From a virus (taxonomy: Duplodnaviria > Heunggongvirae > Uroviricota > Caudoviricetes), in the IMG/VR virus record IMGVR_UViG_2681813225_000024, positions 1 to 11,508 of that record: a stretch of DNA of 11,508 nucleotides; one strand, given 5' to 3'. Below, one piece after another: positions 1 through 4,254 of this stretch (positions are counted from its first letter, which is position 1; each line of letters begins with the position of its first letter). The notes under the pieces are model-generated. The model did no database searches. It had not been told where the DNA came from and was given only the letters and a program-made list of their open reading frames with translations. The position numbers and the translations under genes are program-made.

Positions 1-603
1 TTTCACACCTTCCAGCATGGTTTCGGGTTTTACCCCCTCATTCAAACGGGCTTTCCAGGCTTTGAAGGCTGCAGATTTTGAATTGCCACCAGCACGTTTG
101 GGGTATGCCAGCCATGCCTGCTCAAACTCCGGAGAGTATTCCGGTCGGTTTGAACGAACTCGCACAGACTCATCAGCAGATGCACCAACAGCTATTGGTT
201 CATTGACTGGTTCAAAAGAGTGACTGGTTCTGGGTGAATCTCCTGCACTACCCCCTGGTGCAACTCCTGCACTACCTGGTGAATTTGCTGCACCAGATAG
301 TGAATTATTTGCACTACCCCCTAGTGAATCTCCTGCACCATCCAGATGAAGGAGATAGATATTACTTGAGTTACCTTTTTCACCTTTCCGGGTGACTTTT
401 TTTACCAGCCCGGAATCACAAAGGGCCGCAATATGATTCATCACAGAACGTTTGCTAATCTCGCACTGATCAGCAATATGCTGGTAGCTGGGCCAGCACT
501 CACCCTGATCGCTGGCATTATCAGCCAGCTTGATCAGAACCAGTTTTCGCAATGGATTACCCACTCGAATTTTCATCGCTTTAACCATCAGCTCCATACT
601 CAT
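1..603 (-). CDS. Phage replication initiation protein, N-terminal helix-turn-helix domain plus Gly/Ser/Ala-rich linker; 3' end lies beyond window start (partial)
   Basis: Manual minus-strand translation from ATG at 603..601 is open to position 1 (201 codons, no stop); it is absent from the ORF track because no stop lies in the window. Begins MSMELMVKAMKIRVGNPLRKLVLIKLADNASDQGECWPSYQHIADQCEISKRSVMNHIAALCDSGLVKK, which resembles the HTH domain found at the N-terminus of phage replication initiators. ATG overlaps the upstream gene stop as ATGA (coupling). It is the last gene of the PR-like operon. Confidence 0.7.
   Translation of the reverse strand, partial: MSMELMVKAMKIRVGNPLRKLVLIKLADNASDQGECWPSYQHIADQCEISKRSVMNHIAALCDSGLVKKVTRKGEKGNSSNIYLLHLDGAGDSLGGSANNSLSGAANSPGSAGVAPGGSAGDSPRTSHSFEPVNEPIAVGASADESVRVRSNRPEYSPEFEQAWLAYPKRAGGNSKSAAFKAWKARLNEGVKPETMLEGVK
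225..350. repeat. Imperfect tandem repeats (~21-24 bp units) inside the replication gene, encoding a low-complexity linker (GDSLGGSANNSLSGAANSPGSAGVAPGGSAGDSP)
   Basis: Plus strand shows reiterated units such as ggtgaatctcctgcactaccccct / ggtgcaactcctgcactacct / ggtgaatttgctgcacca / agtgaatctcctgcacca; the reading frame is maintained through them. Confidence 0.6.
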
Positions 604-3291: not shown

Positions 3292-3708
3292 TATCCAAAA
3301 GAAACATGGGGCAGGCAAGATTCAAACAAAATTTGGTTGTAACACGGCGTATGGCACATGCGTCGTTAGCGGTCTGGGGACGTTAAAGGGGACAATCCAC
3401 TCCTTGCTCGGGCAAACAAACCAGGTAGCCGGAATGTGCAAGTCAATGATGATGCTGATAAGACGCCTAACCAGCGTGGCGATCCGGTTTGACGCCTGGG
3501 AAGAGACCAGGGTGCAACGATGAGGGCATTTATGGAGCCGCGACAAAGTGTGGTGCCGTAACTGGCTAAGTGCTCTCAGCGTTGTGGTCATCCGCGAAAT
3601 GGCGCGGCGGTAAGTATGGCTGGGTTACTCTTTCCCCGTTGAGGACACCGGATTGTCAGGTTGACCATACGCCTGAGTGACAACCCCACCACAACAGCCA
3701 CTGCTTTG

Positions 3709-3755
3709 GCGGTACCAGTTTGTACACTTGCTTCCGGCTGGTACCGCTCTTTTTA
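3709..3755 (+). terminator. Terminator-like hairpin in the early-left leader
   Basis: 10-bp stem GCGGTACCAG (3709-3718) / CTGGTACCGC (3738-3747) followed by TCTTTTT. Confidence 0.4.
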
Positions 3756-3756
3756 C

Positions 3757-3845
3757 AAAACAGAGAAGAGCATCACCGGACGACGGGCTCATAACCCAAT
3801 CCATCCGGGCGGCTGCCACCGCAGGTGTTCTTCTCTGTTTTGTGG
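3757..3845 (+). terminator. Second long hairpin (13-bp perfect inverted repeat at base) immediately upstream of the first early gene RBS
   Basis: AAAACAGAGAAGA (3757-3769) is exactly complementary to TCTTCTCTGTTTT (3829-3841), enclosing a 59-nt GC-rich segment; ends in a U-run. Confidence 0.35.
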
Positions 3846-3891
3846 AGAAACCAACCGACCTTGCAGGGTCGATATGATGAGGAGCAGCAAA

Positions 3892-4254
3892 ATGGCTAGC
3901 GAACGCAGTACTGATGTGCAGGCATTTATCGGGGAGTTGGACGGCGGCGTATTTGAAACCAAAATCGGCGCTGTTCTCAGTGAAGTCGCTTCCGGTGTGA
4001 TGAACACGAAAACCAAAGGTAAGGTCTCACTCAACCTGGAAATCGAACCATTTGATGAGAACCGTGTGAAAATCAAACACAAACTCTCATATGTTCGCCC
4101 GACTAACCGCGGGAAAATTTCCGAAGAAGACACCACCGAAACGCCGATGTATGTCAATCGCGGTGGTCGCCTGACTATTCTGCAGGAAGACCAGGGACAA
4201 TTACTGACTCTTGCCGGTGAACCTGACGGAAAACTCCGCGCAGCAGGTCATTAA
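3892..4254 (+). CDS. yfdP: YfdP-like conserved prophage early protein (120 aa)
   Basis: ATG at 3892 preceded by GAGGAG with 7-nt spacing; lies in the ORF track frame 3661..4254. Length and position directly upstream of a YfdQ-like gene match the CPS-53 yfdPQRS order as I recall it. Symbol assigned by synteny, not verified. Confidence 0.5.
   Translation: MASERSTDVQAFIGELDGGVFETKIGAVLSEVASGVMNTKTKGKVSLNLEIEPFDENRVKIKHKLSYVRPTNRGKISEEDTTETPMYVNRGGRLTILQEDQGQLLTLAGEPDGKLRAAGH

Follow-up and report, generated by a model that had tools for sequence, protein, structure and literature searches.

The repeats inside the replication gene at the left end of the window (the whole 11,508-nt stretch of Caudoviricetes DNA analyzed here) are most probably iterons. 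As judged from the sequence and its relatives, the five repeats together with an adjoining 35-bp element would constitute a prophage replication origin located within the initiator reading frame, as in oriλ. Tandem Repeats Finder detected an array of period 24 at positions 234–338 (4.6 copies, score 77) and a second one of period 21 at 267–318; the units of 21–24 bp are imperfect (~64–67% matching). The unit length and the location (225–350) given in a preliminary description of this DNA were thus correct. The repeats had been described as linker-coding, which holds; the dyad symmetry of each unit and the minus-strand orientation of the gene had not been mentioned. For the coordinates of all features see Table 1.

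Table 1. Features of the initiator gene and of the putative origin in the window. Iteron assignments are putative; iterons are numbered in gene order.
Feature	Position	Strand	Sequence	Remarks
Initiator gene, 5′ part	1..603	-		201 of 268 codons; translation, Pfam, PHROG
Winged-helix N-domain (aa 1–88)	340..603	-		AlphaFold2, Foldseek, helix co-variation
Whole iteron array, five dyad sites	232..340	.		encodes linker residues ~89–124
Iteron 1	324..338	.	GTGCAGGAGATTCAC	core on coding strand
Iteron 2	300..314	.	GTGCAAATAATTCAC	core
Iteron 3	279..293	.	GTGCAGCAAATTCAC	core
Iteron 4	258..272	.	GTGCAGGAGTTGCAC	core; palindromic arms perfect
Iteron 5	234..248	.	GTGCAGGAGATTCAC	core; ends 2 bp short of the conserved 35-bp element
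Conserved low-GC 35-bp element	197..231	-	AGAACCAGTCACTCTTTTGAACCAGTCAATGAACC	encodes RTSHSFEPVNEP
Short direct repeats	221-230 and 204-213	-	GAACCAGTCA
Degenerate repeat copy	192-201	-	GAACCAATAG
C-domain start (aa ~150–201)	1..155	-	EYSPEFEQAWLAYPKRAGGNSK...	one of many interchangeable modules

The array resolves into five copies of a 15-bp dyad, GTGMA-N5-TKCAC, with start-to-start spacings of 24, 21, 21 and 24 bp. Exact matches to this pattern, which like the dyad types and other site statistics below was derived from these same sequences, occur five times in the 11.5-kb window compared to 0.06 expected, and none of 200 shuffled sequences reached five. Among the five copies only 1 of 10 half-site columns varies, as opposed to all 11 columns of centre and spacer (Fisher p = 3.4e-5). 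An origin of the oriλ kind should contain at least three tandem dyad sites of ~18–20 bp that lie about two helical turns apart; five such sites are present here. Additional dyads elsewhere in the window, for example autoregulatory ones, were considered and rejected (two matches with one mismatch, 1.8 expected).

The initiator ORF starts at position 603 and is open at the left end of the window. The complete gene comprises 268 codons and is found at positions 3368–4174 of a 100%-identical locus (L090) of E. coli 2014C-3011. Its start codon (ATG, 603–601) overlaps the stop codon of an upstream 78-aa ORF (ATGA, 600–603), which suggests that translation of the initiator is coupled to this ORF. The 78-aa ORF belongs to no Pfam family and was found only in enteric relatives.

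Residues 17–67 of the initiator match Pfam HTH_36 (PF13730) with 44.2 bits (gathering cut-off 25, E = 1.7e-11), and the protein matches PHROG families annotated as 'replication initiation protein' (E = 9e-64). Some of the matching PHROG names read 'O-like', but these are separate PHROG families. Phage_rep_O (PF04492) gave no match at E ≤ 0.1, neither with the 201-aa fragment nor with the 268-aa full protein. NCBIfam yielded HTH matches only, all of them sub-threshold, and a search of PDB sequences with a profile of the full-length alignment gave no meaningful match (best E = 0.46). We built an AlphaFold2 model from the full-length relative P0025 (96% identical). It comprises a confident winged helix (residues 1–88, pLDDT 78–92) with helices at 40–47 and 51–64 and a β-hairpin at 67–85. 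Residues 91–158 have pLDDT values below 50; then follows a helical C-domain (helices 147–225). The predicted recognition helix begins at residue 51, and the ten residues linked to specificity (49–58) read ISKRSVMNHI. In a Foldseek search the model matched only generic winged helices, including DnaD-N and the Orc1/Cdc6 WH (all E > 0.01), so that no specific structural family can be claimed.

The array lies ~265–370 nt into the initiator ORF and encodes the peptide DG-AGDSLGG-SANNSLS-GAANSPG-SAGVAPGG-SAGDSPR. It is located between the HTH_36/winged-helix domain and the helical C-domain, the position expected of an oriλ-like array, and the linker it encodes is predicted by the model to be disordered. 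Translation, HTH_36 match and AlphaFold2 model agree with the original assignment of a Gly/Ser/Ala/Pro-rich inter-domain linker.

In order to compare the repeats with those of relatives, we used an N-domain alignment to collect 80 loci from one-genome-per-species contigs. The GTGMA-N5-TKCAC dyad occurs three to seven times in 52 of these loci, and only in the linker. The hosts belong to Pseudomonas, Aeromonas, Shewanella, Parashewanella, Marinomonas, Marinobacter, Enterobacter, Rahnella, Lelliottia, Vreelandella and Wohlfahrtiimonas. The pooled set contains 232 sites with 64 distinct 15-mers, spaced by 21 (57 cases), 22 (26), 23 (29) or 24 bp (57). Owing to the spacings of 22 and 23 bp, 34 of the 232 sites lie in another reading frame; within a single gene the core GTGCAGGAGATTCAC, for example, occurs in two frames and encodes S-A-G-D-S or V-Q-E-I-H accordingly. 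Some loci contain flipped copies (GTGAATCTCCTGCAC), which encode G-E-S-P-A. Conserved flanks widen the dyad to 19 bp, T-R-GTGMA-N5-TKCAC-Y-A. The invariance of the half-sites in the pooled matrix is partly circular, because the pattern used for collection fixed them; the tests of frame, orientation, spacing and flanks and the comparison within the window are free of this circularity. A motif maintained in either frame and either orientation, with half-sites that stay constant and centres that do not, is the hallmark of a site for a symmetric DNA-binding protein. On this comparative reading the constraint on the repeats acts on the DNA and not on the peptide.

One DNA motif that specifies different peptides in two frames and both orientations contradicts an alternative explanation, namely that the repeats matter only as coding sequence for a flexible linker, shaped by in-frame duplication and slippage and devoid of any function as DNA. 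This explanation would account for the predicted disorder of the segment, for spacings that are all multiples of three in the E. coli lineage and for linkers of one to nine units among homologues. It would not account for half-sites that are invariant next to free centres and spacers, for the retention of the motif across genera of 38–63% GC in which synonymous sites of the N-domain have diverged, or for the switch of the motif together with the recognition helix described below. We therefore regard it as very unlikely. If the repeats are iterons, the Gly/Ser/Ala/Pro linker would be disordered because the encoded segment has to tolerate whatever the sites in the coding DNA spell.

The remaining 28 of the 80 loci lack the GTGMA dyad and carry other tandem dyads at the same position. 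The type of repeat tracks the ten residues that follow an invariant 'QCE' (residues 49–58), and initiator residues 1–48 are almost invariant. Helices of the form xS[KR]RSV[MI]xH (type A) are found with the dyad GTGMA..TKCAC and the helix ISKRSVMRHI (type B) with GTGAC..GTCAC. The helix IDRSTVR[KR]HI is paired with TGTAGGC..GCCTACA, I[AGS]RSTVKxHI with GGGGCGGCAG.. and CSKSAVRxHI with TGCCGTCAGATGGCA. Among 187 loci no helix 10-mer was associated with two recognized dyad types; some of these loci are untyped ('?'), since the regular expressions for types D and E are imperfect. Pairing of the iteron sequence with the specificity of the initiator N-domain, as expected for an oriλ-like module, is thus supported by comparative evidence, and lambdoid O proteins and their iterons follow the same logic. 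We propose that the ~19-bp dyads are putative binding sites of the winged-helix N-domain encoded by the same gene.

The five helix-dyad pairs provide a natural series for how winged-helix initiators read DNA. One pair involves a nearly single change in the helix (N to R) alongside a change from GTGCA to GTGAC in the dyad. In three loci (L048, L053 and L055) the type-B helix ISKRSVMRHI corresponds to the common type-A helix ISKRSVMNHI with N replaced by R, and their dyads differ from those of type A at the matching half-site position (GTGAC/GTCAC vs GTGCA/TGCAC). This exchange is a possible natural single-residue specificity switch.

The 35-bp element next to the array is present in 76 of the 80 genome loci, with at most five mismatches in 75, and the gap between the last dyad and the element is 2 bp in 48 of 49 loci. 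There is virtually no synonymous change in the element among ~190 loci from many gammaproteobacterial genera, and it is constant regardless of the type of iteron or C-domain. At positions with a conserved amino acid the fraction of the major codon is 0.99 in the element and 0.57 in the N-domain, where 3.6 codons are used per column (Mann-Whitney p = 2e-7); the loci compared span 38–63% GC. In 180 loci the element forms the deepest GC trough within ±450 bp (0.39–0.42 vs 0.54–0.59), and in high-GC hosts its GC content is 0.41 compared to 0.59 around it. Its AT content is only ~57–60%, and in the present window of 50% GC the trough is shallow. In IMG/VR, 113 of 120 occurrences of the element have a related N-domain directly upstream.

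We propose that the element is the unwinding or loading part of the putative origin. That AGAACCAGTCACTCTTTTGAACCAGTCAATGAACC in addition serves both as a sequence-specific origin core and as a homologous joint for the reassortment of modules is a tentative suggestion, to which we give somewhat less than an even chance. Such a core might serve for unwinding or helicase entry, or it might be recognized by a conserved host factor or by initiator residues 1–48. The modules reassorted at the element may be those for origin specificity (N-domain and iterons) and for helicase recruitment (C-domains). The sequence invariance of the element is the most interesting loose end of this analysis. A promoter-proximal AT-rich stretch (341–400, GC 0.33–0.38) was also considered as part of the origin and rejected, because it codes for the wing and is not conserved as DNA. 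At positions 380–395 of the plus strand, antisense to the initiator gene, a terminator-like hairpin with a T-run was observed, at a frequency that corresponds to chance (one found, 0.8 expected).

Dyad sites for winged-helix dimers are typical of operators, and plasmid Rep proteins are also known to autoregulate. The dyads might accordingly be an operator or roadblock at which the initiator, or some other regulator of the phage, acts on transcription through the gene, with no origin involved; the co-variation with the helix shows only that the initiator reads the sites and not what follows from it. The sites are, however, buried within the ORF and not located at a promoter, and a scan of positions 1–900 detected no promoter-like site. 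In addition, five phased sites abutting a low-GC element that is conserved throughout the family correspond to the layout of an origin, and both the annotations and the profiles of the protein family are those of a replication initiator. An operator function in place of an origin appears very unlikely to us.

The array could also lie in the initiator gene by chance and serve something else, for example the binding of a host factor, recombination or packaging. Nothing specific speaks for this; the 35-bp element co-varies with no identified feature of the initiator. The absence of any recognition helix with two repeat types among the 187 loci and the constant position of the array in the initiator gene argue against it, and this third explanation is extremely improbable. 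Conservation of the module does not extend to the upstream 78-aa ORF, which is absent from 80 of 80 non-enteric genome loci and was rejected as a partner of the conserved element, too. A role of the repeats as iterons of an origin remains the preferred reading.

Beyond the element the C-terminal parts of the initiators fall into at least ten unrelated clusters. Nine of them are combined with type-A N-domains, and one and the same C-domain cluster can be found with as many as five iteron types. PHROG matches of the C-domain are confined to residues 138–201 or 150–201, with the profiles split at the joint. In the phages ST64B and 118970_sal3 the near-identity to the window extends over the N-domain and the array and is lost immediately past the 12-bp repeats. 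Since both the phage sequences and the PHROG profiles part at this point, the mosaic joint suspected in the preliminary description is real, and it can now be placed at or just beyond the conserved 35-bp element. A Pfam search with nine C-domain representatives gave a single match (Phg_2220_C) and none for the others. The number of 12-bp units at positions 192–230, GAACCAGTCAAW (E-P-V-K/N), differs between relatives and does so independently of the number of iterons; most relatives have one copy more than the window, and some exceed this majority by a further copy.

The linkers of the 120 best protein homologues contain 1, 2, 5, 6, 7, 8 or 9 iteron units. Variants in copy number are nearly always in frame. 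One of them has a run of five SAGVAPG units, and phage cdtI reaches eight dyads by way of a 66-bp duplication of three units. Five units are the mode, both in IMG/VR (53 of 75 loci) and in most of a spread sample from 931 E. coli records. The expected variation between orthologues was therefore borne out, with linkers of different length and a disrupted frame in a few loci; the invariant linker that would have spoken against it was not seen, because the number of iterons differs between orthologues. The idea of a slippage-prone linker stands with regard to in-frame variation. Its causal picture is not supported, as the repeat is conserved as DNA and five units prevail. Neither near-identical short units nor frequent frame switching, the marks of a phase-variable locus with slipped-strand mispairing, were found, and the array is not a hypervariable contingency repeat. 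It resembles such repeats in that tandem coding repeats differ between strains and frame-disrupted alleles occur rarely; it differs from them by long (21–24 bp), imperfect units, a modal number of five and a DNA motif that is shared across genera.

The frame is disrupted in or beside the array in 3 of the 80 loci. The last spacing is 23 bp instead of 24 bp in Pseudomonas bharatica (L029), a deletion between repeats is present in Erwinia tracheiphila (L053), and one T is missing from the conserved element in Mixta mediterraneensis (L086). These three loci are probably defective prophages or sequencing errors. Among a group of E. coli variants (P0057, P0071, P0059–P0066 and P0022–P0027) we observed arrays of one or two iterons, fusions of the N-domain and linker to RusA (PF05866) and, in P0057, a deletion that takes out the conserved element. 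Variants with few iterons, without the element or fused to RusA are candidates for replication-dead prophage remnants; more generally, an array reduced to one or two iterons or the absence of the 35-bp element may indicate a replication-defective prophage.

Based on these comparisons we propose the following course of initiation. The initiator would be made from the early transcript, and dimers of its N-domain would fill the five sites, about two helical turns apart, to form a wrapped nucleoprotein complex. This complex would destabilize the low-GC element that starts 2 bp past the last site, and the exchangeable C-domain would then recruit the helicase machinery. Unequal recombination or slippage between the repeats would alter the number of iterons and the length of the linker together, mostly in frame. 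The origin reading would thereby account for the variation in length of the initiator protein from strain to strain. For genome annotation it would also mean that the 'low-complexity linker' in HTH proteins of this kind represents a site acting in cis, and it would provide a clear example of selection at the DNA level that dictates a disordered protein region.

Winged-helix initiators that act on phased repeats beside an unwinding element are known from plasmids (pPS10 RepA, F RepE, RK2 TrfA and R6K π). Plasmid iterons are located outside the rep gene and are asymmetric direct repeats bound by monomers. The sites in the window differ from them as they are dyads inside the ORF, and the initiator has no Pfam match to Rep_3 (PF01051).

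The closest architectural parallel is oriλ. Within gene O it comprises four iterons of 18 bp, separated by short spacers, and adjoining them an AT-rich stretch of 38 bp (PMC3349717). In Stx phages there are six iterons, two more than in λ, which lengthen O by 13 residues (PMC7466680). As in the window, the tandem dyads of oriλ and of the Stx phages P27 and 933W are ~18–19 bp long and follow one another at ~21–24 bp in the central part of the initiator ORF, where they separate an N-domain that binds the origin from a C-domain that is exchangeable. Both kinds of module have a ~35–38-bp stretch of lower GC content on the promoter-distal side, and in both the number of iterons varies in frame between relatives and alters the length of the protein (PMC3349717, PMC7466680). 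Unlike λ O, the initiator described here is an HTH_36 protein, and its iteron sequence is unrelated. The 35-bp element is less AT-rich than the corresponding λ region and, in contrast to it, is invariant in sequence across genera and iteron types. Since the initiator lies outside Pfam Phage_rep_O, the analogy to λ is one of architecture and not of homology. We propose by this analogy that the module works like oriλ and O, of which it is not a homologue by the tests that were run.

Phages P22 and L carry their own repeats inside gene 18 (bioRxiv 10.1101/2020.10.05.325894). There, too, distinct repeats inside genes of related origin-binding proteins have been read as the origin, and the specificities of repeat and protein are paired (bioRxiv 10.1101/2020.10.05.325894). 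Both phages differ from the present module in protein family and in repeats, which in phage L are six in number and 11 bp long (TGTCCAACGGA). A series of five dyad types that co-vary with N-domains so closely related to one another is found only in the present family and not in P22 and L.

The segment in the window matches a prophage of E. coli 2014C-3011 with 100% identity. This prophage has an early region similar to e14 and SfV with the gene order ymfK (cI-like), ymfT (cro-like), ymfL, DUF4222, ash, 78-aa ORF, initiator, yfdN remnant, dam, rusA and Q. The yfdN-like gene that comes after the initiator in relatives such as SfV and mEp460 is annotated here as a pseudogene fragment (L090:4171–4254), just past the left end of the window. 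No helicase or loader gene adjoins the initiator in the 2014C-3011 prophage; unlike in λ, there is no P-like or DnaC-like gene next to it.

At the DNA level the module is 90–99% identical to the 'replication protein' genes SfV orf39, ST64B sb42, mEp460 gp43 and cdtI orf46 as well as to those of 1720a-02 and many Stx2 and Stx2c phages. In the literature we found no published origin for the modules of SfV, ST64B, cdtI, mEp460 or the Stx2c type, only remarks at the level of the module. Of 5,426 complete E. coli genomes, 928 contain the module. Its carriers include Stx2-, Stx2c- and cdt-converting phages and serotype-converting phages of Shigella and Salmonella, and modules related to it were also seen in Pseudomonas, Aeromonas, Shewanella and other genera. 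Upstream of the initiator, in the ash/antirepressor region of the prophage, Rfam identified on the minus strand a C4 antisense RNA (RF01695, positions 1117–1204, 82 bits) and the Hfq-binding sRNA isrK (RF01394, positions 1229–1305, 64 bits), both above the gathering score.
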